From: an uncultured Candidatus Peribacteria bacterium
GTDB lineage: Bacteria; Patescibacteriota; Gracilibacteria; Peribacterales; Peribacteraceae
DNA length: 64,000 bases
Reading direction: 5' to 3'
NCBI GenBank assembly: GCA_964358505.1
Contig: CAYHOS010000002.1
Location: 9,561-73,560, forward strand
How positions within the stretch are numbered: the first letter of the stretch is position 1; every line of letters begins with the position of its first letter. Shown one piece after another: positions 220 to 61,038 of the stretch. The translations under genes were made by a program, and so were the position numbers. The notes below the pieces were generated by a model. That model did not search any database and was not told the origin of the DNA. It was given only the letters and a program-made list of their open reading frames with translations.

Positions 220-315
220 CGGAATACTACTTGAAGCAAGAAGGAGTATGCCCTCTCCTCGAAGACCCTGAGCGAAGTCGAAGGGCGGGAGAGGACTAGG
301 GTGAGGGTGAGGGTT

Positions 316-1293
316 TCAAAGAAGTCCTACCCTCTCCCTCACCTTCCCCATCGTCTCTTCCGCAATCCCTTTCGCCTTCGCCGCCCCCTCCTCCAGGATC
401 TGCCGGACCGTATCCTTCTTTTTGGCATACTCTTGCCGTTTCTTACGCATCGGCGCGAAGAAGTCCAGGTACGTCCGGAGCAGCTTCTTCTTCCCCTCCC
501 CGTAGGGCAGCCCATTGCGGTACTCCGCCGCCAGCGCTTCCTGTTCACTGTGGGCAAGGAACAGCTTGTGGACCCGGTAGATGACGCAGGTCTCGGGGTC
601 CTTGGGGTCGTTGGCGCCCTTGGAATCCGTCACGATGCCCATGATGGCCTTCTTCGCCGCCCCTGAGCCTGTCGAAGGGCCGTCCCCGAAGAGCGGGATG
701 GTGTTGCCGTAGCTCTTGCTCATCTTCTGGCCGTCGGTACCGGGCACCACCGCCACCTCCTCCCGGATCACCGGTTCCGGCACCGTGAAGGTTCGGCCGT
801 ACAGGTTATTGAACTTCACGGCGATGTCCCGCGCGATTTCCAAATGCTGCTTCTGGTCCTTCCCCACGGGGACCTGGTCCGCCTGGTAGAGGAGGATGTC
901 CGCCGCCATGAGGACGGGGTACGTGAAGAGCCCGGCCGATGCCGCCACCCCCTTCTCCACCTTCTCCTTATAGCTCACCGCCCGCTCAAGCAAGCCCATG
1001 GGCGTGACGGTGGAGAGGATCCACATCAACTCCGTGTGCTGCGGCACCTGCGACTGGCAGAAGATGACCGATGCCGCCGGGTCGAAGCCGCAGCCGAGGT
1101 AGTCCAGCACGATCTCCTCCCGCGCCTTGCGCAGCGTCTCCCCCTTCTGGACCGTGGTGAGGGCGTGGAGATCGGCGATGAAGAAGAAGCCCTGGTCCGC
1201 CTCCCCTTGCAGTTCAAGGTTGGGCTTGATGGAACCGAAGTAGTTGCCCAGGTGGAGCTGGCCGGAGGGCTGGATGCCGGAGAGGACGCGCAT
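316..1293 (-). CDS. trpS: tryptophanyl-tRNA synthetase
   Basis: ORF 316..1329 has GIQPSGQLHLGNYFG (HIGH-class) and KMSKS motifs. Start set to ATG 1293 (MRVLSGIQPSG), which has TACACT 6 nt upstream; the longer start at 1329 is possible. Confidence 0.93.
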   Translation of the reverse strand: MRVLSGIQPSGQLHLGNYFGSIKPNLELQGEADQGFFFIADLHALTTVQKGETLRKAREEIVLDYLGCGFDPAASVIFCQSQVPQHTELMWILSTVTPMGLLERAVSYKEKVEKGVAASAGLFTYPVLMAADILLYQADQVPVGKDQKQHLEIARDIAVKFNNLYGRTFTVPEPVIREEVAVVPGTDGQKMSKSYGNTIPLFGDGPSTGSGAAKKAIMGIVTDSKGANDPKDPETCVIYRVHKLFLAHSEQEALAAEYRNGLPYGEGKKKLLRTYLDFFAPMRKKRQEYAKKKDTVRQILEEGAAKAKGIAEETMGKVRERVGLL

Positions 1294-1344
1294 ACGCGCA
1301 GTGTAGCGATGGTAAGGACTCCGTGCCATGTCGTCCTTGCCATC

Positions 1345-4358: not shown

Positions 4359-5351
4359 TCACGAAGCGACTGTTGGGGTTTCGATGTACTTCTTATTCAG
4401 GTAAAAAGCGAGATAGCCGACGGCAATGAGGGCGAAACCGGCGAGCACCAAAGAGAGAGGCCAGCCCAGACCTTCCTTGAAGTACTCACTGGTGATTTTC
4501 AGGATATACAGCATGAGATAGAGGGAGCCGAAGACGAGGAACGATTTGCTCTTGAAATGGATACTGAGAAACATTGCCCCGAAGACCAGGCCGGGGAAAA
4601 TGAGTTCCCAGAAGTAATATTGCCGCGGAGACCACCCGCCAAGGGCAAGCGCCGCTCCCAGAAAACCAAAAATTCCCAATCCATACAAGAATCCCGTAAA
4701 TTCTTCTTTGTCGGAATGCTGGAAATAGTATCCAAGGCAGATGTAGGAAATTCCTGTCACCACAATACGGTAACAATAGAATCTCCACCTCTCAAACAAC
4801 GGATTCGGGCCAAGAAGATAGCTGGTGAAAGCGAAGAACAGCCATGTGGCAAAGAGAATAGTGAACAAGAGGAAGAGATTCTGGCGAAAGAGGAAGTAGG
4901 AGGCGAAAAACATGCCAGTAAGAATGAGGGAGATTACGACATTTGTTCCTGGAGAACTCGTTTCCCATCCCGCCTGATGGAGCGTCACAAAAAGACCAAG
5001 CGGCATCACTAAAGCGGAAATGAAGAAGAAGGCCTGCGCTACTTTCACGAGTCGTTCATCCCGCATGAACAACAGGCCGACGACGTACGCCGCAACACCG
5101 GAGCCAAGCGTCGTGAGAACCTTGGTGAAAACGTTGAAAACGCTCCAGTTCTGCTGAATGAGAATGGCAATGCCGAAAAAGACAATAGCCCCTCCGATGA
5201 AATACATGATCTCGGAGAGCGAAACGCTGTGTTTCGTAGCGTCGCCGGTTGTCGCAACGCCACTTTCATAAGCTCCAAGGACTTCCTGCTTGGTAAGCAC
5301 TTTGTCCTTCGCAAAGGCTGTAATTTGGTCGAGTAGTTCTTGTTTTTGCAT
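4359..5351 (-). CDS. polytopic membrane protein, function unknown
   Basis: 330-aa ORF with about 9 hydrophobic segments and visibly lower GC than its neighbours. Confidence 0.6.
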   Translation of the reverse strand: MQKQELLDQITAFAKDKVLTKQEVLGAYESGVATTGDATKHSVSLSEIMYFIGGAIVFFGIAILIQQNWSVFNVFTKVLTTLGSGVAAYVVGLLFMRDERLVKVAQAFFFISALVMPLGLFVTLHQAGWETSSPGTNVVISLILTGMFFASYFLFRQNLFLLFTILFATWLFFAFTSYLLGPNPLFERWRFYCYRIVVTGISYICLGYYFQHSDKEEFTGFLYGLGIFGFLGAALALGGWSPRQYYFWELIFPGLVFGAMFLSIHFKSKSFLVFGSLYLMLYILKITSEYFKEGLGWPLSLVLAGFALIAVGYLAFYLNKKYIETPTVAS

Positions 5352-6391: not shown

Positions 6392-7504
6392 ATGCGCGCC
6401 ATAGCAGCCGCACTCCTCCCGTTCATCGTCCTGGGCACCCTCATTGCGGGCACAGTACCGACATACGCCGGCGGCGTTTCCCAGTGCATCCGCATTTCTT
6501 CCCCGCAGAAACCCTTACGGTTTTCCTCTTCCTCCACACCGGCAGCCACCATGAGCCGCAAAGAGAAAGCCGCCGCGCAGAAAGCGGCACGCCTGGCACG
6601 CCGGAAGGGACGTTCAACCTTCCGTTCCGCATCTTCGGCAGCCCCGTCCATCGACGTGGGAATAGTGGTCCACAAGAACGGCGGAGCGCTGTACATCAGC
6701 TCCCTCACGCCGGGGGGCGCCGCCGACCAGGCGGGGTTCCTCTTGGGTGATGAGATCCGCAAGCTGGACGGCAAAGATGCGTACAAGAAATATTCTCCGG
6801 AAGCACTCATGAAAGCCCTCAACGGCCCCGAAGGGAGCAGTGTGACGCTGGAAATCGCCAGGCAGAAGGACGGTGGGATACTCTCGATCACGCTGGTGAA
6901 GAAGAAAGCGGTGGAGAAAGCGGAGTACGCGCTGCAAATGACCGATGGTCTGCTCCTCCTCAAGATCGAAGCGTTCAACGGCGCCACCTCCAAGCCCCTG
7001 CGGGAAGCCTTGGGCGCGGTCCAGTGGAAAGACGTGAAAGGGGTGGCCGTGGATCTCCGCACGCCCCCAACCGGCACCCTGACGGGGATGGATCCCATCA
7101 TCAGCGCGTTCCTCCCCAAAGGGACGCCGTTCGCCACCCTCCAGTTCACAAACGCCCGCAAGGAAACCATGGTGACGGGCGCCGACCCCCTCGTACCCGC
7201 CACCCTCCCCCTCTTCGTCCTGCTGCCGAGCAGCGGGTCCTTCAGCGAGGGCGCCGTCCTCTTCGCCCACAACCTGGAAGAGAAGCGGAACGCCACCCTC
7301 CTGCGGGAAGAGAAAGGCGTCGGCTCTCAACACGCGTACCTCTCCTTCGGGGACATGCCGGCTGGCTTGGAAGCGTTCTGCGCCGACCGCATTGACGTGA
7401 ACCTCTACAACGTCGGCGCAAGGAGCATCGCCGTCACTCCCGTGCCGGGGATGGATTCCGCGGTGGAAAAGGCGAAGTTCTTCATCCAGTATCCCCCGCG
7501 CTGA
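6392..7504 (+). CDS. PDZ-containing S41 (C-terminal processing) peptidase-like protein
   Basis: ORF 6365..7504 has a signal/TM N-terminus, a PDZ-like segment LYISSLTPGGAADQAGFLLGDEIRKLDG, and S41-like VDLRTPPTG plus SSGSFSEGAVLFA. Confidence 0.7.
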   Translation: MRAIAAALLPFIVLGTLIAGTVPTYAGGVSQCIRISSPQKPLRFSSSSTPAATMSRKEKAAAQKAARLARRKGRSTFRSASSAAPSIDVGIVVHKNGGALYISSLTPGGAADQAGFLLGDEIRKLDGKDAYKKYSPEALMKALNGPEGSSVTLEIARQKDGGILSITLVKKKAVEKAEYALQMTDGLLLLKIEAFNGATSKPLREALGAVQWKDVKGVAVDLRTPPTGTLTGMDPIISAFLPKGTPFATLQFTNARKETMVTGADPLVPATLPLFVLLPSSGSFSEGAVLFAHNLEEKRNATLLREEKGVGSQHAYLSFGDMPAGLEAFCADRIDVNLYNVGARSIAVTPVPGMDSAVEKAKFFIQYPPR

Positions 7505-15617: not shown

Positions 15618-16205
15618 ATGCATCATCCTCTCTCCCACTTTACCCTGAGATTCGTCGAAGGACTCCTCTCCACGACGGTCCTTGTGACGCTCCTGGCTCC
15701 CTCCGCGGGCTCGGCGCGCCGCATCGATTCCCTTCCCGGCGCCAGTTCATCGTCGTCCTCCAGCACCAGCGGTGCGGTGAAGACCACGGGGCGGCAGACC
15801 AGCCACCGCGCCGTACTACGCGCGAAGCGGCTGGAGTGGAAGGAACGCGCGGAAGGGAAACGGCCCCTTCCCTCCTCCAGCTCCTCCGCGAAGGCCGGTT
15901 CGTATGTCTACGCGCCGTTCGCGGAAGGGGTGTTGGGCAGGGGGGAGAGCGCGCTCCTGTATTTCTGTAGCAACTGGTCACGCCAGTGCCAGGGCTTGGA
16001 TACGATTCTCGAGGAATGGTCGGAAGCCCGCAAGTTCGTGATCCCCGTGTACCACGTGGAGTACGACACCTCCAGGGAACTCCGCACCACCTACGGCGTG
16101 AAGCATGTCAACACCTACGCGCACGTGGACGGCAAAGGGAAGCTCATCCGCCTCTACCGCAACCCGCCGGAAGCGGCGGTGCGGCACATTGCATACGATG
16201 AGTGA
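15618..16205 (+). CDS. secreted thioredoxin-fold protein with degenerate active site
   Basis: N-terminal hydrophobic segment and Ser-rich linker. The C-terminal Trx-like domain has FCSNWSRQC where WCxxC is expected. TACACT-ctcccc-ATG. Confidence 0.5.
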   Translation: MHHPLSHFTLRFVEGLLSTTVLVTLLAPSAGSARRIDSLPGASSSSSSSTSGAVKTTGRQTSHRAVLRAKRLEWKERAEGKRPLPSSSSSAKAGSYVYAPFAEGVLGRGESALLYFCSNWSRQCQGLDTILEEWSEARKFVIPVYHVEYDTSRELRTTYGVKHVNTYAHVDGKGKLIRLYRNPPEAAVRHIAYDE

Positions 16206-21096: not shown

Positions 21097-21116
21097 CAAT
21101 GGGTAGTATACAGGAA

Positions 21117-21209
21117 ACGGACTTCGGACATCGGACTTCGGGCTAGACACTAGGTGGCCAAAGACCGCCTTCAAGAAACTTCAACCGAAGTCCGAATGCC
21201 GAAGTCCGT
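21117..21209. repeat. inverted repeat of GAAGTCC-type heptamer words (family A)
   Basis: acggacttcggacatcggacttcgg (21117-21141) pairs with ccgaagtccgaatgccgaagtccgt (21185-21209). The arms are 25 nt and near-perfect, with a spacer of about 43 nt, between the hrcA stop and the ATPase promoter. Confidence 0.8.
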
Positions 21210-21210
21210 C

Positions 21211-21924
21211 TCACGCCGCCCGCCGCAGCATGTCCGCCACCAGTTCCAGCGCCACCGTGTTGTACGCGTAGTCCATGCGCAGCGGACCCAGGATCCCGAT
21301 GGCCCCCCCGTTCCCCCGCAGCCGGTACGCCGTGACCATCAGGCTGCAGCTCTGGAGCTGGGGGAGGATGTGGTCTTCGCCGATGTAGTAGCGCGTCTTC
21401 TCGTCCACGTCCACGATGTCCAGGAGGTCCGTGAGGCGCTTCTCCAGTATTTCGATGACGCCGGCGGCCAGCAGAGGATTCATTTGGAAATCGGGTTGGC
21501 GCAGCGCGTTGGCCAGGCCCATGAAGTACACGCCCGGCTTGTGGGGGACCGTGACGAAGGCGACGTTGGGGATCATGCTGGAGAGGAGCGCCACGGCTTC
21601 GTAGGCGTACTCCTGGTCCTTGCGCTGGAAGTACTGCTCCCGCAATCCATCGAATTTCTGGCGCACCTTCCGCTCCGTCGCCGTGGGCTCCATGAACTCC
21701 TTCACGAAGGCGCGGTAGCCCTTGGCGGTGGGGATGCGCCCGGCGCTGATGTGGGGCTGCTCCAGGTACCCCTCGTCCTCCAGCACGCCCATCTCCGTGC
21801 GGATCGTTGCGGAGGAAACGGCGAAGTCCCCGCATTCCAAGAGCTTCTTACTGCCTACCGGAAGCGCCGTGTGGATGAATTGGTCGATGATGGCCGCCAG
21901 AAGCCTGCTTTGCCGGTCATTCAT
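21211..21924 (-). CDS. hrcA: heat-inducible transcription repressor HrcA (short form, 237 aa)
   Basis: MNDRQSRLLAAIIDQFIHTALPVGSKKLLE...SSATIRTEMGVLEDEGYLEQPHISAGRIPT is the HrcA winged-helix N-terminus. A CIRCE element lies directly upstream. Confidence 0.85.
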   Translation of the reverse strand: MNDRQSRLLAAIIDQFIHTALPVGSKKLLECGDFAVSSATIRTEMGVLEDEGYLEQPHISAGRIPTAKGYRAFVKEFMEPTATERKVRQKFDGLREQYFQRKDQEYAYEAVALLSSMIPNVAFVTVPHKPGVYFMGLANALRQPDFQMNPLLAAGVIEILEKRLTDLLDIVDVDEKTRYYIGEDHILPQLQSCSLMVTAYRLRGNGGAIGILGPLRMDYAYNTVALELVADMLRRAA

Positions 21925-29984: not shown

Positions 29985-30728
29985 ATGTTATCGATAGTCG
30001 CAACGCCCATAGGCAACCTGGGTGATATCACTCTCCGCGCCATCGAGACGTTGAAACAGTGCGATGCGATCGTGTGTGAAGACACCCGCGTGACGGGGAA
30101 CCTCCTCAAGCAGTTGGACATCGCAGCGTGTCATGGTGAGCCCCGTCGAACCATGGCACGCGTATTCCCCCTCGACGGGGCTCGGGGTGACACGCCTCGC
30201 AAGCCTCTCCTCAGCTTCCACGGCCACAGCGATCCAGGAACAGTCGAACACATCCTTAATCTTCTCAAAGCGGGAAAGCACCTCGCGCTCGTTTCCGACG
30301 CCGGCACGCCGGGCATCAGCGACCCGGGATATGCGATTGTCAAACGCGCGCGGGAAGCAGGGGTGAAGATTGAAGCGGTGCCCGGGCCTTCCGCTTTCCT
30401 CGCCGCCCTCTCCGTCTCCGGCCTCCCCATCAACCACTTCGTGTATCTGGGGTTCCTCCCGCTCAAGAAGGGGCGGAAGACGCTCCTCGATTCGTTCAAG
30501 GAAGAAGAAAAGACGATCGTCTTCTACGAGTCCGTCCACCGTATCGGGAAGACATTGACGGAACTTGCGGACGCGCTGAAGGACCAACCGGAGCGTCCCG
30601 TGGCGATAGCGCGGGAACTGACGAAGCTTCACGAGGAAGTTGTGCACACAAATGTGTCCTCAATTCCCCAGGTCCTCCCCCGCCTCACGCAGAAAGGTGA
30701 GTTTGTGGTCATCATCGGCGCACGATAA
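29985..30728 (+). CDS. rsmI: 16S rRNA (cytidine1402-2'-O)-methyltransferase
   Basis: MLSIVATPIGNLGDITLRAIETL...CEDTRVTG...LVSDAGTPGISDPG. It contains an extra segment of about 26 aa (see repeat 30126-30198). Confidence 0.88.
   Translation: MLSIVATPIGNLGDITLRAIETLKQCDAIVCEDTRVTGNLLKQLDIAACHGEPRRTMARVFPLDGARGDTPRKPLLSFHGHSDPGTVEHILNLLKAGKHLALVSDAGTPGISDPGYAIVKRAREAGVKIEAVPGPSAFLAALSVSGLPINHFVYLGFLPLKKGRKTLLDSFKEEEKTIVFYESVHRIGKTLTELADALKDQPERPVAIARELTKLHEEVVHTNVSSIPQVLPRLTQKGEFVVIIGAR
30126..30198. mobile_element. double-hairpin repeat element inserted in frame inside rsmI (family F)
   Basis: gtgtcatggtgagccccgtcgaaccatggcac...ccccctcgacggggctcggggtgacacgcc aligns block for block with the reverse complement of the intergenic element at 57270-57347. 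Confidence 0.65.
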
Positions 30729-31017: not shown

Positions 31018-31110
31018 AGTGTCTCTCCTTTCATGAATGGAAATGATCAGTGCGCCGTTTATAGCACTGTAAAGTTTTTTGAACAATACAAACTTCTCCT
31101 CATCCGTCTA

Positions 31111-31138
31111 ATTCTTCATTCTTCATTTTTCATTTCAC
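31111..31138. repeat. CATTCTT-type heptamer array (family C)
   Basis: aattctt-cattctt-cattttt-catttca, between two minus-strand genes. Confidence 0.6.
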
Positions 31139-31165
31139 ATCTCAGTTTTCCTTTTCCCATGCCGC

Positions 31166-32520: not shown

Positions 32521-32613
32521 GAAACCGAGGTAACCGAGAAAGCCGAAGAAACCAAAGAATGACTGACGATCTCCCCCTAGGTTTCCTCGGTTTCATCGGA
32601 TTCCTTGGATTCC
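32521..32613. repeat. inverted arrays of a 9-nt word, GAAACCGAG / CTCGGTTTC (family B)
   Basis: Left: gaaaccgag-gtaaccgag-aaagccgaa-gaaaccaaa (32521-32556). Right: ggtttcctc-ggtttcatc-ggattcctt-ggattcc (32580-32613). Confidence 0.8.
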
Positions 32614-35109: not shown

Positions 35110-35367
35110 ATGGGCATCATCTTCCCCATCATCGGCATCGTCGCCTCATTCTTCCTCCTCAAATACCGCGAGAGGGTTGGCGACATGGTCGGTGAAGGCG
35201 AGTGGATGAAGAAGATCGGAGGCGTATACATGGTGGTCATCGTTGTTGCGGTCTTCCTCTTCTTCTGGAGCGTGGCGGAACTCACGGGGACCACGGACAT
35301 CCTCTTCCGTCCGCTCACACTCCTCATTCCGGGCTACCGACAGCCGGAGGTCCCGCCCGCTTTTTGA
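35110..35367 (+). CDS. small membrane protein (85 aa)
   Basis: Two hydrophobic helices, MGIIFPIIGIVASFFLL and VYMVVIVVAVFLFFW. Confidence 0.5.
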   Translation: MGIIFPIIGIVASFFLLKYRERVGDMVGEGEWMKKIGGVYMVVIVVAVFLFFWSVAELTGTTDILFRPLTLLIPGYRQPEVPPAF

Positions 35368-35387
35368 ACGTATCAGAAACCTTCCAT

Positions 35388-35415
35388 GTCATGGTTCGAC
35401 GGAGCTCACCATGAC
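35388..35415. repeat. REP-like hairpin (family F, solo copy) between convergent genes
   Basis: GTCATGGT-tcgacggagctc-ACCATGAC. The 27-nt core atggttcgacggagctcaccatgacac is identical at 57319-57345. Confidence 0.8.
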
Positions 35416-35425
35416 ACACTTTCCC

Positions 35426-36874: not shown

Positions 36875-38047
36875 TCACGCCACAATCTCCCCCACTCTTC
36901 CTTCCTCCACCGCCTTCCGTATTTCCATCCCCACGCGTTCCCCCACGCTCATGGATTGGCCGTAGAGGTACCCGGAGTACGGGGTTGCCATGATTCCGGG
37001 GGAGCCGGGGATGCGGAGGCTGACGTCGAAGATCACGATGTCCTCCTTCCCCTCCTCCGCCACCACCGCCCCCTGCAGAGCGAACGGCCCGATGATCCCC
37101 TTGCCGGAAGGGTCGAGCTCCGGATGCTTGGCGTGGAGGTCCTGCGTGGCTTTGACGAACTTCTCCCCCAGGTCGAACGCCTTCTCCAGGAGCGACTCCT
37201 TGACGGTGCAGGCGATGTGCCCGGTTTCGATCATTTTCAGGTCCACGTGCGCCAGCGCTTTGGCCTGCTCCCTCGCCGTCATGCGGAGGAAGCCGTCCAG
37301 GTTCGTCTGCCGGCGCGTATCCGTGCCGAGCAGTTCCAGCTCCTTCGTGAGCGGCGAGTAGAAGAAGTTGAAGTTGACGGGCGCACCCACAACGAACTCC
37401 TCCAGGGGGGCCTGCCGCCACTTGGCCGTGACCTTCCCCTCTTTCTCCAGGCGGGACCCCTCCGCTTCCCATGAATGCCGGTCCTCCACGAGGAAGAACG
37501 CCCTCTCGTACCCCCGCTGCGCTTCGCTGGCCTTGACGAGGACGGGGCGGTCAATCTCCTCGGGCTTTGCGAAGATCGTGGGCGTGCGGATGCCGGCGTC
37601 CCTCAGGAGATGGTACTGGTTGTACGGTTGGTCACGCTCCTCCAGCTTGAGGAGCGTCCGCGACCCGAAGATCGGCACGTTGAACCCGTTCTCGACCTTC
37701 GAAAAATCATCGAAGTAGACCCAGAAGTAGCGGTTGTGGACGAAGATCGTACTCATCTCCCGCAGCTTCTTCTGGACATCGTCCCGCAAGACATCGGCAA
37801 ACTTCTCCACGAGAATCACCTCATCAATACAACCCTTGGAAATCCCTTCGTCCGAAGTCCGAGGTCCTAATTCCTTCGTCCTAAAGTACTCCGTATACGT
37901 CCTCTCCCTCCCCTTGCGCGCCACGCAGAGCGTCCTGAACCCCCACTGCCTGGCGCCGTGGCACACGTCCAGGGCGCTATGGCCGCCGAGGACGCCGATG
38001 GCGAGGTTCTGCAAATCGTAGCCGGAGAGGAGATCCTTTGTATTCAT
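36875..38047 (-). CDS. purP: PurP-like ATP-grasp enzyme (archaeal-type FAICAR synthetase family), paralog 1
   Basis: IGVLGGHSALDVCHGAR...PEEIDRPVLVK...EEFVVGAPVNFNFFYSP...GPFALQG. TACAAT-ctctcc-ATG at 38047. Confidence 0.85.
   Translation of the reverse strand: MNTKDLLSGYDLQNLAIGVLGGHSALDVCHGARQWGFRTLCVARKGRERTYTEYFRTKELGPRTSDEGISKGCIDEVILVEKFADVLRDDVQKKLREMSTIFVHNRYFWVYFDDFSKVENGFNVPIFGSRTLLKLEERDQPYNQYHLLRDAGIRTPTIFAKPEEIDRPVLVKASEAQRGYERAFFLVEDRHSWEAEGSRLEKEGKVTAKWRQAPLEEFVVGAPVNFNFFYSPLTKELELLGTDTRRQTNLDGFLRMTAREQAKALAHVDLKMIETGHIACTVKESLLEKAFDLGEKFVKATQDLHAKHPELDPSGKGIIGPFALQGAVVAEEGKEDIVIFDVSLRIPGSPGIMATPYSGYLYGQSMSVGERVGMEIRKAVEEGRVGEIVA
37852..37874. repeat. family-A heptamer repeat embedded in frame in purP1
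   Basis: ccgaagtcc-gaggtcc-taattcc compared with ccgaagtcc-gaagtcc-taagtcc at 56184-56206. It encodes KELGPRTSDEG, which the adjacent paralog lacks. Confidence 0.65.
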
Positions 38048-39226: not shown

Positions 39227-39300
39227 GGCCAAAGAAACTGTAGAATCCAAGGATAGAAACCTCCTTGGTTTCTTCGGATTCCTCGGTTTCTTCGGATTCC
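39227..39300. repeat. inverted arrays of the 9-nt GGWTTCNTC word (family B, second locus)
   Basis: Right arm ggtttcttc-ggattcctc-ggtttcttc-ggattcc (39267-39300) matches 32580-32613 at 28 of 34 positions. The left arm contains gaatccaagg...gaaacc. Confidence 0.8.
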
Positions 39301-43982: not shown

Positions 43983-44990
43983 ATGGCCATGAAGCAACCC
44001 CATGTGATGACCGTCGGCGGCGCGACCTTCGACCTCTTCGTGCGGACGGGAGGGGCCGTCGCAACGGGGGAGGGCGGACGGAGCCTCTGCTTCCCCGTGG
44101 GGGCAAAGATCGGCGTGGAGCAGATCATCGAGACGTGCGGCGGGGGGGCCTCCAACACCGCCGTGGGGCTGGGCCGCCTGGGCTGCGCCGCCGCCTTCTG
44201 CGGCGTCGTGGGTAATGACCAATGGGGCGAGCGCATGCTCCGGAACCTGCAGGAGAATGGCGTGGATGTTTCCCCCGCGACCGTCGTGGAGGGCGAGAAC
44301 AGCAGCTCCTCCATCATCCTCTCCGTGGGAAGCGGCGAACGCATCATCCTCTACAACGCGGGCAGCAACATCCACCTGCACGACGTGACCTTCGACAAGG
44401 CGAAGGCGCAGGAACAGGACTGGATCTACCTCACGCACCTCCAGAAGCTCAGCAGCCAGATCCTGGATGACCTGGCGGCATTGACGGAAGGGAATGACCG
44501 CATCGGCATCACGTGGAATCCCGGCGGCACGCAAGTAAAGGCCGGATGGGATGCGGCGGACATCCGTCCCCTCCTGGCCCGCACGGATATCCTCCTCCTC
44601 AACAGGGAGGAGGCACTGGGCTTCACTCATTCTGCATCGGTGGACGAGGCTTTGAAAACCCTCCTCGGCGCGGGCGCGAAGACCGTGTGCGTGACGGACG
44701 GGAGGGAGGGCGCCACGGCGACGGACGGCACGCAGGTGTTCCACTGTCCCCCGCTGGAGGACGCCGAGGCGGTCGATACCACGGGCGCCGGGGACGCCTT
44801 CGGCACCGGCCTCACGTGGGCACTCCTGACCGGTTTGGACTTGTCAACCGCGCTCAGAGCAGGTACGATAAACGCTACAAGCGTCCTTGGATCTATCGGC
44901 GCGCAGGCAGGCCTCCTCACCAACACCGAGATGACGAAGCGGCTCTCCTCCCTGGACCTTCCTGTGCAGTCACGTCCATTGCACGCGTGA
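43983..44990 (+). CDS. PfkB-family carbohydrate kinase
   Basis: GGGASNTAVGLGRLG and DTTGAGDAFGTG motifs. Confidence 0.85.
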   Translation: MAMKQPHVMTVGGATFDLFVRTGGAVATGEGGRSLCFPVGAKIGVEQIIETCGGGASNTAVGLGRLGCAAAFCGVVGNDQWGERMLRNLQENGVDVSPATVVEGENSSSSIILSVGSGERIILYNAGSNIHLHDVTFDKAKAQEQDWIYLTHLQKLSSQILDDLAALTEGNDRIGITWNPGGTQVKAGWDAADIRPLLARTDILLLNREEALGFTHSASVDEALKTLLGAGAKTVCVTDGREGATATDGTQVFHCPPLEDAEAVDTTGAGDAFGTGLTWALLTGLDLSTALRAGTINATSVLGSIGAQAGLLTNTEMTKRLSSLDLPVQSRPLHA

Positions 44991-45010
44991 TATCCATCCC
45001 CTCACCCGCC

Positions 45011-45628
45011 ATGTCCGACGACTCCCTCGTGCACGTTCAGGAACTCATCGATAGCGCGATGTCCTCGCTCAAGACCGCCCACGCCATGCTGCGGGAGATG
45101 ACGGGCGTGGTGGATTCCTCGCGCGAGCGCCACATGATGCGCGCCAACGCCATCTCTTCCGCCGGCCCCGTGAGCGGGCGCGTGGTGGAGGGCGTGTTCG
45201 ACGGGCAGAACATGGTGGATGCCAACGGCCAGACATACCCCGTTCCCGCCAACTACGCCAGCAAGAGCAAGCTCGTGGAGAGCGACGGCATGAAGCTCAC
45301 CATCACCGACGAGGGGAAATTCATCTACAAGCAGATCGCCCCCGTCCCCCGCCGCACCGCGCTGGGCGTGCTCATCCAGGAAGACGGCCAGTACAAGGTG
45401 CTCGCGGAGGGCAAGGCGTTCCGGGTGCTGCTCGCTTCGGTGACGTTCTACCGCGCCGAAGTGGGCGACCAGGTGACGATCCTCCTGCCCCAGGGCGTTG
45501 ACGCAAAATGGGGCGCCGTGGAGGCCGTGATCCCCAAGCACATCGCCGAGGCCGCCGCCCGCGCCACGGTGGAAGGCGGGACGACGCACGGGGAGGATGG
45601 GGAGATGAGCCCGTCACTCGGGAAGTAA
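45011..45628 (+). CDS. conserved-looking hypothetical protein (205 aa)
   Basis: ATG 45011 within ORF 44513..45628 (MSDDSLVHVQELIDSAMSSLK...). The C-terminal half is beta-rich. No motif recognised. Confidence 0.55.
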   Translation: MSDDSLVHVQELIDSAMSSLKTAHAMLREMTGVVDSSRERHMMRANAISSAGPVSGRVVEGVFDGQNMVDANGQTYPVPANYASKSKLVESDGMKLTITDEGKFIYKQIAPVPRRTALGVLIQEDGQYKVLAEGKAFRVLLASVTFYRAEVGDQVTILLPQGVDAKWGAVEAVIPKHIAEAAARATVEGGTTHGEDGEMSPSLGK

Positions 45629-45735
45629 GGACACGGCATGCCGCGTCCTTACGATGATCCATGGAGCCATGCTTTTCTGCATGTCATGGGAAGCGCGGTA
45701 GCGCTTCCCCCCGCCCTGCGCTACCCTCAGCCCAC

Positions 45736-56160: not shown

Positions 56161-56185
56161 GCAACTTCCCCATCCTCTCATTCCC

Positions 56186-56226
56186 GAAGTCCGAAGTCCT
56201 AAGTCCTAATCCCCAATCCCTAACCC
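56186..56226 (+). repeat. six-unit heptamer array abutting the rplJ start codon (family A)
   Basis: GAAGTCC-GAAGTCC-TAAGTCC-TAATCCC-CAATCCC-TAACCC, then ATG 56227. Confidence 0.85.
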
Positions 56227-56766: not shown

Positions 56767-56770
56767 CCTG

Positions 56771-56819
56771 TCATCCTTCATTCTACATTCTTCATTCTAC
56801 ATTCTTCATTCCCCCTCCC
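56771..56819 (+). repeat. seven-unit heptamer array upstream of rplL (family C)
   Basis: TCATCCT-TCATTCT-ACATTCT-TCATTCT-ACATTCT-TCATTCC-CCCTCCC, then catc and ATG 56824. Confidence 0.85.
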
Positions 56820-56823
56820 CATC

Positions 56824-57228
56824 ATGGCAGACGCAACCATTACCCTCGGCGCCGACGAGCAGGCGGTGATCTCCGCCCTCGAGAAGCTCAACGTTATCCA
56901 GGTCAATAACGTGGTGAAGTACATGGAAGAGACCTACGGCATTTCCGCCGCCGCCCCCGTTGCCGTTGCCGCCGCTCCCGCCGCAGGCGGAGGGGCCGCA
57001 GCCGCCGACGAGGAGAAGACCTCCTGGAACGTGGAGCTCACGGATTCCGGCGCGCAGAAGATCGCCGTGATCAAGGTGGTCCGCGAGATCACCGGCCTCC
57101 CCCTGGGCGAAGCCAAGGCCAAGGTGGATACCCCGCCCCAGGTGCTCAAGGAAGACGTGCCCACCGACGAGGCGAAGAAGATGAAGGAGAAGCTGGAGGC
57201 CGCGGGTGCGAAAGTCGCCCTCAAGTAA
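56824..57228 (+). CDS. rplL: 50S ribosomal protein L7/L12
   Basis: Ala-rich hinge followed by KIAVIKVVREITGLPLGEAKAKVD...KEKLEAAGAKVALK. Confidence 0.95.
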   Translation: MADATITLGADEQAVISALEKLNVIQVNNVVKYMEETYGISAAAPVAVAAAPAAGGGAAAADEEKTSWNVELTDSGAQKIAVIKVVREITGLPLGEAKAKVDTPPQVLKEDVPTDEAKKMKEKLEAAGAKVALK

Positions 57229-57269
57229 TCTTGTATCTGCTGAGAGCATGCTGAAGAAGTCAAAGCCAG

Positions 57270-57347
57270 CATTTGTGTCACTCCGAGCATCGTCGAGGAG
57301 CGACACAAATGCGGGTGTATGGTTCGACGGAGCTCACCATGACACCC
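57270..57347. mobile_element. intergenic double-hairpin element (family F, full-length copy)
   Basis: CATTTGTGTCACTCC-gagcatcgtcga-GGAGCGACACAAATG (57270-57311, 14 of 15 bp) followed by GGGTGTATGGT-tcgacggagctc-ACCATGACACCC (57313-57347). Confidence 0.7.
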
Positions 57348-57360
57348 TTACCATCCTCCA

Positions 57361-59254: not shown

Positions 59255-59306
59255 GACGCGGCATGCCGCGTCTCTACGAGGACGGCTATTCCGGCATCGA
59301 TGACTG

Positions 59307-59349
<43 letters not shown>

Positions 59350-59352
59350 CCG

Positions 59353-61038
59353 ATGTCTTTCCAGACACGTCGGATTGGCGATGCCGAGAAGCCGCCGCGC
59401 TCGTTTTCCAGGCTGCGCCACGTAGGCGGCAGCTTTACGTGGCTGCGCTACCTTTCCCCATGGCGCATTGCAGGCACGGTGGGCTTCCTCCTGGCCTCCC
59501 CCCTCCTCTACGTCCTGCACAAGCGAAAAGAACGGCAAGAACAGGCCGAAGAGCAGGAAAGGCGCACGGGGGTGCTCAAGCGCACCTTGGTCATCCTGCT
59601 GGCCGTTTTCCTGTGCCTGGCGGTGCTGGCAGGCGTGGCCAAGGCGCTCGTCGCGCTCGACGTGGTGAACGTCCGCACTATCCTGAACGTTGCCGGCGCG
59701 GACCTGCCGCGGGATGGGGACGGCTTCACGAACTTCCTCCTCCTGGGGAAGGGCGATGACGACCACGACGGCATTGATTTGACGGATACCATGATGGCGG
59801 CGAGCGTGGACCCCAAAACCAAGAGCGTGGTGCTGCTCAGCATCCCGCGCGACCTGTACGTGAAGTCCGCCGTCATGGGGGAAGGGCGCATCAACACCCT
59901 CTACCGCGATTACAAGGCTTCCCTCGTCCGCAAGCAGGGGATGACGAAGGAGGAGGCGTCCAAGCAGGCGCTCCGGGAACTGCTGCGGGAAGTGGGGCAC
60001 AAGCTGAACGTGACGCTCCACCACGCCGTGATGGTCAATTTCAGCGGCTTCGTGGACGTGGTGGACGCGCTGGGGGGGCTGGACGTGGAGGTGCCTTACG
60101 ACATCGTGGACACGCAGTACCCGGGACCGGACTGGACGTACCAGACGTTCTCCATCGGCGCGGGGCTGGCGCACTTGGACGGTGAAACGGCGCTCAAGTA
60201 CGCCCGCAGCCGCCATACCACGAGCGACTTCGGGCGCAGCGCGCGCCAGCAGCAGCTCATCCAGGCGCTGGGGGAGCGCGCGAAGAGCGTGGGCATCGCC
60301 AAGAGCCCCCGCAAGATCCTGGCGCTCCTGCGCATCCTCTCCGAAAACGTGGAGACGACGATGACCGGCCAGGAGCTCCTGGGTGCGGCCAAGCTTGGCG
60401 ACCGCATCGAGCGCTCCCGCATGGTTTCCATGCAGCTCAACGACGTGAACGGCGTGTACACCGGCTTCGTGGAAGCCGGCGGCTTCCTGTACACCCCTCC
60501 GCGCGAGGAGTTCGGGGGCGCCGCCGTGCTCCTGCCCATCTCCGCATCGGCTCTGCCGGGCAGCAGTACCGGGCTTGCCCGGCGCAGTCCCGCGGAGCGG
60601 GACGAAGACGGGTGGCGGCAGATCCGTCTCTTCTTCTCCCTGCTCACCCACACCCGCACCCTGTACCTCCAGAACCCCCGCATTGCCGTGCTCAACGCCG
60701 GCGCCAAGACGGGGTTGGCCGGGCGACTGGCAACGGAACTCATCCGCTACGGATTCACCGTGGAGAGGGCCGAGAACGCCGAACTCCCTCCCCCGCCCGA
60801 TTCCACCGCCAAGCGCGCCTCGCTGCCCGCCTCCTCCGTCTCCCCCCAAATTCCGGAAGACCCGACCGCGGCGGCCTTCTTCTCTGCCCTCCTCAACCTC
60901 CCCTCCGCTCCCCTCCCCACGGACCTGCCACTGGAACAGCAAGGCCAGGTGACGATCTTGCTGGGGGAGGACTATACTTTCCAACCCTTTCATGAATTAC
61001 TGAGGGAGCCGGGATCCCCTTCCTCCTCCGTTCCATGA
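59353..61038 (+). CDS. LytR-CpsA-Psr (LCP) family protein with LytR_C-like C-terminal domain
   Basis: N-terminal TM, FLLLGKGDDDHDGIDLTDTMMAASVDPKTKSVVLLSIPRDLYV and ETALKYARSRH. Confidence 0.88.
   Translation: MSFQTRRIGDAEKPPRSFSRLRHVGGSFTWLRYLSPWRIAGTVGFLLASPLLYVLHKRKERQEQAEEQERRTGVLKRTLVILLAVFLCLAVLAGVAKALVALDVVNVRTILNVAGADLPRDGDGFTNFLLLGKGDDDHDGIDLTDTMMAASVDPKTKSVVLLSIPRDLYVKSAVMGEGRINTLYRDYKASLVRKQGMTKEEASKQALRELLREVGHKLNVTLHHAVMVNFSGFVDVVDALGGLDVEVPYDIVDTQYPGPDWTYQTFSIGAGLAHLDGETALKYARSRHTTSDFGRSARQQQLIQALGERAKSVGIAKSPRKILALLRILSENVETTMTGQELLGAAKLGDRIERSRMVSMQLNDVNGVYTGFVEAGGFLYTPPREEFGGAAVLLPISASALPGSSTGLARRSPAERDEDGWRQIRLFFSLLTHTRTLYLQNPRIAVLNAGAKTGLAGRLATELIRYGFTVERAENAELPPPPDSTAKRASLPASSVSPQIPEDPTAAAFFSALLNLPSAPLPTDLPLEQQGQVTILLGEDYTFQPFHELLREPGSPSSSVP

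Follow-up and report, generated by a model that had tools for sequence, protein, structure and literature searches.

An in-frame doublet of a dispersed palindromic repeat within rsmI of a Candidatus Peribacteria genome

The window analysed here, a 64,000-nucleotide (nt) stretch of a Candidatus Peribacteria contig, carries on its plus strand, at 29985..30728, the gene rsmI, which encodes the 16S rRNA C1402 2'-O-methyltransferase. Inside this gene we found an in-frame insert made of two inverted copies of a hairpin repeat that also occurs elsewhere in the window. The open reading frame (ORF) starts with the ATG at 29985 and encodes 247 residues, insert included. It matched TIGR00096 (1e-67, 228.5 bits against a cutoff of 167.9), and its best solved relatives were the E. 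coli RsmI entries 5hw4 and 9pzg. Public collections held an exact copy of the protein (P0001) under the label Patescibacteria, and the nearest relatives were labelled Candidatus Peribacteraceae. RsmI is a conserved protein and is not essential in E. coli. Upstream of rsmI, on the opposite strand, lies gyrA, and the neighbourhood of rsmI is syntenic across five related contigs.

When the protein was aligned to E. coli RsmI with HMMER, the alignment fell into two blocks, leaving query residues 47-74 unmatched at a place where E. coli has three residues. Comparison with the closest orthologs that have an empty site placed the insert at 30126..30197 on the plus strand (ACHGEPRRTMARVFPLDGARGDTP), a segment of exactly 72 nt or 24 codons. 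A sequence-only reading of this stretch had proposed a dispersed repeat carried in frame inside RsmI and encoding about 26 extra residues. Ortholog comparison and nucleotide matches bore out the repeat and the extra segment, and corrected its length. The insert is a doublet of two inverted hairpin units. Unit 1 (30126..30161, plus strand) reads GCGTGTCATGGT-GAGCCCCGTCGA-ACCATGGCACGC, with a stem of 12 base pairs (bp), one of them G-T, around a conserved 12-nt loop. Unit 2 (30162..30197, minus strand; nhmmer match 30164-30193, E 4e-6) has the loop GAGCCCCGTCGA in inverted orientation and an inner stem, CCCC/GGGG, only. The proposal that both hairpins had been retained thus held for hairpin 1 and not for hairpin 2, which is down to 4 bp.

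Other copies of the same repeat were found along the window. A unit is 30-36 nt long. Its GTGTCA head is followed by four bases of variable identity, by GAGC-NNN-GTCGA, by four bases complementary to the variable ones and, in many cases, by TGACAC. In the full element two such units, the second inverted relative to the first, are separated by a short spacer. Three copies of the 25-mer GTCATGGTGAGCYCCGTCGAACCAT were found in the window, at 30130 (plus) and at 35391 and 57319 (both minus), with 0 occurrences expected in 100 shuffles. The match at 35391 lies in a solo unit (35385..35418, minus strand), also detected by nhmmer, between convergent ORFs that end at 35367 and 35426, and it confirmed that the first hairpin is common to this copy and the rsmI insert. 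An intergenic doublet of the same family lies at 57269..57348 (minus strand), 41 nt past the stop of ORF 56824-57228. The block-for-block alignment that had been claimed between the insert and the reverse complement of this element was recovered end to end. The second half of the insert alone scored 33 against the 57-kb copy; shuffled sequences averaged 10.8 and none out of 2000 reached 33, so that the similarity to the intergenic copies is formally significant for this half as well as for the 25-mer.

A search of the window with an nhmmer unit profile returned five strong units, a pair each in rsmI and at 57.3 kb and a single one at 35.4 kb. Beyond these it found a clear solo unit, GACCCT-GAGCGAAGTCGA-AGGGC (259..292, plus strand, E 0.002), about 28 nt downstream of the trpS stop, which brings the clear units in the window to six, and two weak matches. 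One weak match (658..685, plus strand, E 0.002) lies inside trpS (316-1329, minus strand) and encodes GPSTGSGA. The loose regular expression behind this candidate yields about 0.4 matches per shuffled window, and the stretch may be a decayed in-frame unit or chance. TrpRS is five residues longer there than two solved homologs. The other, a very weak and degenerate unit-like stretch (15640..15668, plus strand, E 0.01), lies at the N-terminus of ORF 15618-16205. Left flanks of the units are varied and A-rich before GTGTCA; only in the 57-kb copy does GTAAG precede a unit (unit 1). A scan of the window against Rfam at gathering score gave tRNAs only, and a search of 30080-30250 at E up to 10 gave best values of 1.4 and 2.4, far under gathering scores. 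Literature searches for the translated motifs and the DNA words turned up primer coincidences only and no relevant paper.

The boundaries of the insert were set by orthologs collected from other genomes. Here L-numbers denote collected loci or contigs and P-numbers RsmI orthologs, the pairs being L103/P0002, L105/P0004, L107/P0003, L108/P0006, L109/P0045 and L110/P0056. In the empty-site ortholog of L108 the codons ATC GGG are directly followed by AAG AAG GAA, and in the carriers the insert stands after ATC-GNN and before AAG AAG GAA, with the same junction, orientation and frame in the window and in the loci L103 and L105 of two other species. Against 72 nt in the window, it measures 75 nt (25 codons) in L103 and 99 nt (33 codons) in L105, where the excess is a 24-nt piece nested inside a decayed unit 1 (99 = 75 + 24). 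No stop codon interrupts the insert frame in any of the three carriers. Since three different lengths are all multiples of three and stop-free, the insert is probably translated. About 110 of the 120 best RsmI matches, which are Peribacteria orthologs, have neither the extra segment nor the nucleotide repeat, and the 24 codons are missing from E. coli RsmI as well; empty sites include L108/P0006, P0005 and most of the 120. Every ortholog with the extra segment also has the nucleotide repeat, so that the segment was not seen conserved as protein in orthologs lacking the repeat. The carriers were drawn from separate NCBI, JGI, ENA and Logan assemblies, which excludes an assembly artefact.

The conservation of the insert differs from that of its host gene. 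Hairpin 1 shows no difference between the window and L103 (36 of 36 nt), whereas identity in the remainder of rsmI is 70%, falling to 50% at third codon positions; the two genes use the same codon at only 53% of the positions with identical amino acids. Unit 2 has CCCC/GGGG as its inner stem in the window, where L103 and L105 have CCCT/AGGG, a double change that keeps the pairing and alters the protein (F to L and Q to R). An exhaustive search of 1.84 billion representative proteins with the 30-residue insert peptide found two unrelated repeat proteins only, and a concatenated insert-peptide query had no match; these searches are no measure of the in-frame copy number. Because the peptide search found nothing real, the insert is not a protein module. 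The comparisons indicate that the constraint on the insert acts on its nucleotides, not on its protein. They are compatible with an insertion that was recent or happened repeatedly, with ectopic conversion of one copy by another, or with a hairpin under selection.

Folding of individual copies gave strong structures of two forms. The L103 copy and the 57-kb copy fold into two adjacent hairpins (-46.6 kcal/mol, z -6.3, and -43.0 kcal/mol, z -4.9, respectively), and the minimum-energy fold of the window rsmI copy is one long hairpin between both units (-42.4 kcal/mol, z -3.4). DNA parameters gave the same result. Of 243 loop-core matches in the 0.84 Mb of loci collected, which had not been selected for pairing, 187 had 7 or more of 10 flanking positions paired, and ten different inner-stem sequences were found, all of them complementary. 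Because of this flank pairing and the ten complementary stems, the hairpin is a real constraint on the repeat family.

The family was also found within other genes. In L010, a Peribacteria contig, miaA has, in frame at 4960-5110 on the minus strand, 45 extra residues after its P-loop helix, made of three units, and a host segment is duplicated around the last unit (AEVVNGDSR and AEIINGDSR), which may be a relic of how insertion or recombination took place. In L127 the gene mpg (91-846; methylpurine DNA glycosylase, Pur_DNA_glyco 9.5e-57) contains about 52 extra residues in frame, and its insert uses the same frame as that of rsmI (CHGEPRRTMAR). A third in-frame copy lies in L125 (1547-3457), in a membrane protein with C-terminal tetratricopeptide (TPR) repeats. 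The hosts of these miaA, mpg and TPR-protein copies are related GC-rich genomes. A metagenome scan with a longer version of hairpin 1 found 18 loci, 17 of them from one Hainich groundwater assembly with equal coverage, where 90 kb held 19 copies, mostly doublets, those in mpg and in the TPR membrane protein among them. Other frames spanning the Hainich copies proved on inspection to be alternative-frame noise of GC-rich DNA; since two in-gene copies are real and the other frames are noise, about one in ten copies in this sample is coding. The intergenic copies (35.4 kb, 57.3 kb, 259-292 and a solo unit between convergent genes in L088), a small sample, lie tens of nt past gene 3' ends or between convergent genes.

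The hairpin core is not private to the window genome: its parts (GTCA, a covarying stem and the GAGC-NNN-GTCGA loop) are present in many phyla. With one free position, the 25-mer matched more than 102 stretches in a collection of species-representative genomes. Its hosts included Mucilaginibacter and other Bacteroidota, Clostridia metagenome-assembled genomes (MAGs) from rabbit gut, Peribacteria, Caldithrix, Longimonas, a Thermomicrobiales MAG and a deltaproteobacterial MAG. Because the inner stem varies while head and loop are fixed and the family is very large, identical 25-mers in different phyla need no recent transfer. When the ORFs within 2 kb of 112 copies (102 loci) were clustered, no recurrent neighbour emerged except a small GIY-YIG ORF at three Bacteroidota loci, an association at 3 of 102 loci that is suggestive only. 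These ORFs (95-103 residues, PF01541 1.4e-17) lie among or beside arrays of units at L078 1-900, L001 1595-1992 and L079 3200-3454. A search for cargo between inverted units 250-2500 nt apart found only the GIY-YIG ORF of L078, a Flavobacteriaceae locus.

The loop of RsmI that holds the insert has received other repeats as well. Inserts occur at this loop in 6 of the 120 best matches and belong to four different repeat types, and the aligned proteins showed a single further internal length difference outside it. The sister ortholog L107/P0003 carries in the same loop (L107 10208-10232), in frame and on the minus strand, a GTAG-tagged repetitive extragenic palindromic (REP) sequence, GTAGGGACGTCCCGGCGGGACGTCC, further copies of which lie at 7171, 7199 and 13279 of that contig. 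In L109/P0045, two codons further on (L109 2340-2387), the stem of a GTAG-tagged REP encloses one GAGC/GTCGA unit. The insert of L110/P0056 (L110 1571-2332), in the same loop, is Ser-rich and built of 9-nt tandem units (TCCTCGGAA-like) that resemble window repeats at 32521-32613 and 39258-39300, the latter intergenic, in direct and inverted orientation. By these comparisons the RsmI loop is permissive for foreign repeats and a hot spot for them.

We then considered where this loop lies in the protein. An AlphaFold2 model of RsmI, built with 32 orthologs, had a mean predicted local distance difference test (pLDDT) score of 83. Residues 50-69, between the helix at 34-43 and the strand at 75-77, scored below 50, and the insert peptide is predicted to be a disordered surface loop of 24 residues. 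The best Foldseek matches of the model were RsmI structures (probability 1.0), with a global TM-score of 0.42-0.46 and a root mean square deviation of 13 A; the low global score probably reflects how the model sets its two domains relative to each other. In the 2026 cryo-electron microscopy (cryo-EM) structure of the 30S-RsmI complex, the N-terminal domain contacts C1400 and G1401 via D45, T46, R47 and H68, and no residue in 54-61, the stretch that matches the insertion site, is cited as a contact (PMC13037946). The helix-to-strand loop with the insert would face away from the substrate in such folds. Within the N-terminal domain the insertion site is the loop that joins helix alpha2 to strand beta3, a place that would tolerate extra residues. 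At the other end of the protein, the window RsmI and the 223-residue Peribacteria orthologs stop at the end of the E. coli core domain, without its 42-residue C-terminal domain, which is essential for 30S recognition in E. coli (PMC13037946).

Next, we compared the family with known small repeats. The closest likeness is to REPs and their inverted doublets (REPINs), which are imperfect palindromes of 30-36 nt that occur as inverted dimers, forming two short hairpins or one long one, and also as singletons; they lie mostly after gene 3' ends or between convergent genes, with a minority in ORFs, in frame, encoding 20-30 residues (PMC3733652; PMC3116915, Bertels and Rainey 2011). The survey of GTAG-/CGTC-tagged REPs by Di Nocera et al. 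2013 (PMC3733652) reported, from several phyla, REPs contained entirely in ORFs whose function is known. Dimers or groups encoding 20-30 residues made up over half of these intragenic REPs, and the host genes included those of tRNA and rRNA modification enzymes; REPs were otherwise placed near gene 3' ends or between convergent genes. The present family shares the short imperfect palindrome, 20-40 bp in REPs, repeated many times (the six clear units of the window and the 19 Hainich copies) and the inverted dimer with a short spacer and the potential to form a long hairpin (in rsmI, at 57 kb, in L103 and in most Hainich copies). It is also mostly extragenic and near gene 3' ends in the small sample formed by the window copies and L088. 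It differs as follows. Its head is GTGTCA and it has no conserved, unpaired terminal GTAG or CGTC tag, GTAG being found only in the L109 chimera; conservation is highest in its long loop of 11-12 nt, with the same loop and head across phyla; and no REP-associated tyrosine transposase (RAYT) was seen flanked by its units in the window or in about 1 Mb of collected loci. Membership of the CGTC-tagged REPs, raised by the CGTC within the loop, was rejected, as that family has stems of 8-9 bp starting with A/T, loops of 4-5 nt and a terminal tag.

The sequence-only reading had likened the insert to Rickettsia palindromic elements (RPEs), and the further in-frame copies in miaA, mpg and the TPR membrane protein upheld that likeness. 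RPEs are likewise in-frame palindromic repeats in conserved housekeeping genes, translated where the fold tolerates them (Ogata et al. 2000, 2002, as described in PMC10969869 and PMC3733652). The present insertion at a permissive position of rsmI in three genomes and in the three other genes follows the same pattern, and in both cases the family is also intergenic and the host genome is small and streamlined. By contrast, the present host belongs to the Patescibacteria or Candidate Phyla Radiation (CPR) and is GC-rich, and the element is a dimer of REP-like units of 72-78 nt, compared with about 150 nt for RPE-1, a distinction that is drawn from host, GC content and size and not from consensus sequences. 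On these likenesses the REP/REPIN class is arguably a closer analogue than the RPE. [quoted passage not shown] Unlike MITEs, the family shows no target-site duplication and no parent insertion sequence with the same ends was found; its ends are themselves autonomous hairpins and also occur solo. There was no duplication at the rsmI junction and no transposase between inverted units, the sole cargo being the single GIY-YIG ORF. Readings as an integron attC site, a CRISPR repeat, a tRNA-like element or a ribozyme were dropped, as their defining motifs or arrays are absent from the sequence.

Taking these findings together, we consider it likely that the insert is a REP/REPIN-like non-autonomous element that is tolerated and translated within rsmI, a judgement that leaves the RAYT step aside. 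The identity of the repeat, its junction, its maintained frame, its recurrence in other genes and its conservation at the nucleotide level are what the analysis showed. The 72-nt segment would be one copy of a dispersed, non-autonomous palindromic repeat composed of two inverted imperfect palindromes of about 30 nt, each with a GTGTCA head, a covarying inner stem of 4 bp and the conserved loop GAGC-NNN-GTCGA. Its entry into rsmI would date to the ancestor of a small clade within the Peribacteraceae; it would be transcribed and translated together with the gene, and would have survived because its length is a multiple of three, its frame is free of stops and the loop is tolerant. We infer that it is a passenger without a role in RsmI catalysis.

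Movement of the element may have involved single-stranded DNA hairpins recognized in trans by an HUH/Y1 transposase of the RAYT type, and RAYT enzymes move REP singletons and REPIN-like dimers in known systems. Peribacteria do possess a system of this kind: a RAYT-like ORF was found in L109 (2912-4040), directly downstream of rsmI. It matched NF047646 (1e-14, 54.6 bits), its sole PDB match was E. coli TnpArep (4er8), with the HUH motif aligned, and it is interrupted by 21-nt tandem repeats and masked Ns. In tblastn searches with IS200 TnpA and E. coli RAYT, both as approximate sequences, and with the L109 RAYT, only L109 matched. A RAYT is the most likely mechanism that we can name, and even so it is a tentative one, because the REPs at L109 belong to a different family, the present units are untagged and no transposase stands beside their copies.

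Several of our observations weigh against this account of a tolerated REP-like element. The L109 RAYT-like ORF is flanked by GTAG-tagged GTAGGGGCGTCACACGGTGACGCCC REPs, not by the present repeat, and its score lies under the curated NCBIfam cutoff of 80. The present units have no GTAG tag, which defines the RAYT-associated REPs, and a transposase was not found in the window or beside any family copy in about 1 Mb of collected loci. At the rsmI junction there is neither a target-site duplication nor a consistent target sequence, and translation of the insert is deduced from its maintained frame. Finally, the nucleotide-level facts are a misfit for a neutral passenger of long residence, 36 of 36 identical nt being unexpected if the insertion dates back to the divergence of the window from L103, whose GyrA proteins are 80.0% identical. 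Conservation at the nucleotide level within a coding region is the sole feature that the simple passenger model leaves unexplained.

The history of the insertion leaves room for a second course of events. A neighbour-joining tree of RsmI placed the carriers together with three non-carriers in one clade of six, weakly supported (bootstrap 19). Within it the window was sister to P0003 (bootstrap 99), this pair grouped with the empty-site orthologs P0005 and P0006 (bootstrap 87), and P0002 and P0004 formed a separate pair. GyrA identities agree with the tree, the window being 86.9% identical to L108 and less close to L103. The tree and the GyrA identities mean either one gain followed by a precise loss or a site that was hit twice. 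The possibility that the window lineage and the L103/L105 lineage acquired the insert independently, with the element or its enzyme targeting the site, is one we regard as real though not the favoured one. It would account for the position of the window beside empty-site relatives and for the pristine hairpin 1. The unit 2 subtypes of the two lineages, with CCCC and CCCT stems, are both known as free copies elsewhere, and at least four repeat types have entered this loop. Yet junction, orientation and frame agree to the codon, the six-taxon clade, weak as its bootstrap is, is compatible with one gain and one loss, and other insertion sites show no conserved target motif.

A broader reading, which we offer as speculative and rather improbable, is hinted at by the 36 of 36 identity and by the paired change between CCCT/AGGG and CCCC/GGGG. 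The hairpin would be one ancient structured DNA module spread over phyla, its loop the recognition site of a trans-acting enzyme other than the canonical GTAG-specific RAYT. Ectopic gene conversion or pairing selection would actively maintain it in coding regions of streamlined CPR genomes, and it would be a recurrent source of surface loops at preferred sites such as the alpha2-beta3 loop of RsmI.

The same two observations, an unchanged hairpin 1 despite diverged third codon positions and a stem change that keeps pairing at the cost of two amino acids, together with the strength of the folds (z -3.4 to -6.3), could also mean that the rsmI hairpin itself is under selection as a cis-acting nucleic-acid element, whether as an mRNA structure on which ribosomes slow down, as a target through which an RNase tunes RsmI expression or as a protein-binding DNA site, with the peptide a by-product. 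We think this unlikely, more so than the preceding reading. The same sequence occurs in unrelated genes and in intergenic DNA, about 110 orthologs manage without the insert, the L105 copy is decayed and interrupted, and unrelated repeats occupy the same loop in L107 and L110. Moreover, ectopic gene conversion or recent insertion would equally yield a pristine sequence. A reading of the extra residues as an ordinary loop specific to the lineage, or as an artefact of assembly, with a coincidental likeness to the repeat, finds a footing only in the variable loop lengths of orthologs, and is refuted by the exact 25-mer matches with 0 expected by chance, the significance of the second half, the separate assemblies and the lack of any real relative of the peptide among the proteins searched.

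Other repeats were noted in the window. A perfect palindrome, GTAAGGACACGGCATGCCGCGTCCTTAC (45625-45652), with a GTAAG tag on both strands, represents a second REP-like family; its TAA supplies the stop of ORF 44513-45628, and near-identical copies occur at L107 3853-3880. An A/T-rich motif (TTCATTTTTCATTT-like; repeat-finder family D4) recurs at 31108-31151, 56770-56827 and 59304-59361. Repeats resembling CCGAAGTCCGAAGTCC lie at 21114-21212, 37843-37874 and 56182-56213, those at 21.1 kb as an inverted pair with 28-nt arms 43 nt apart.

In-frame REP dimers outside Rickettsia were already known. New in the present case are the repeat family, its group of hosts, a single loop used four times over and the conservation of the insert as nucleotides, and in the searchable literature we found no paper linking REP, RAYT or REPIN with CPR. 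These findings add the CPR to the groups in which palindromic repeats have colonised conserved genes in frame. They also carry a warning for annotation, as a hairpin core scattered over phyla gives rise to spurious short ORFs and to apparent lineage-specific inserts. One surface loop of RsmI that holds four kinds of repeat DNA in related species is a clean natural experiment, and it bears on how mobile DNA makes protein length variation in very small genomes.

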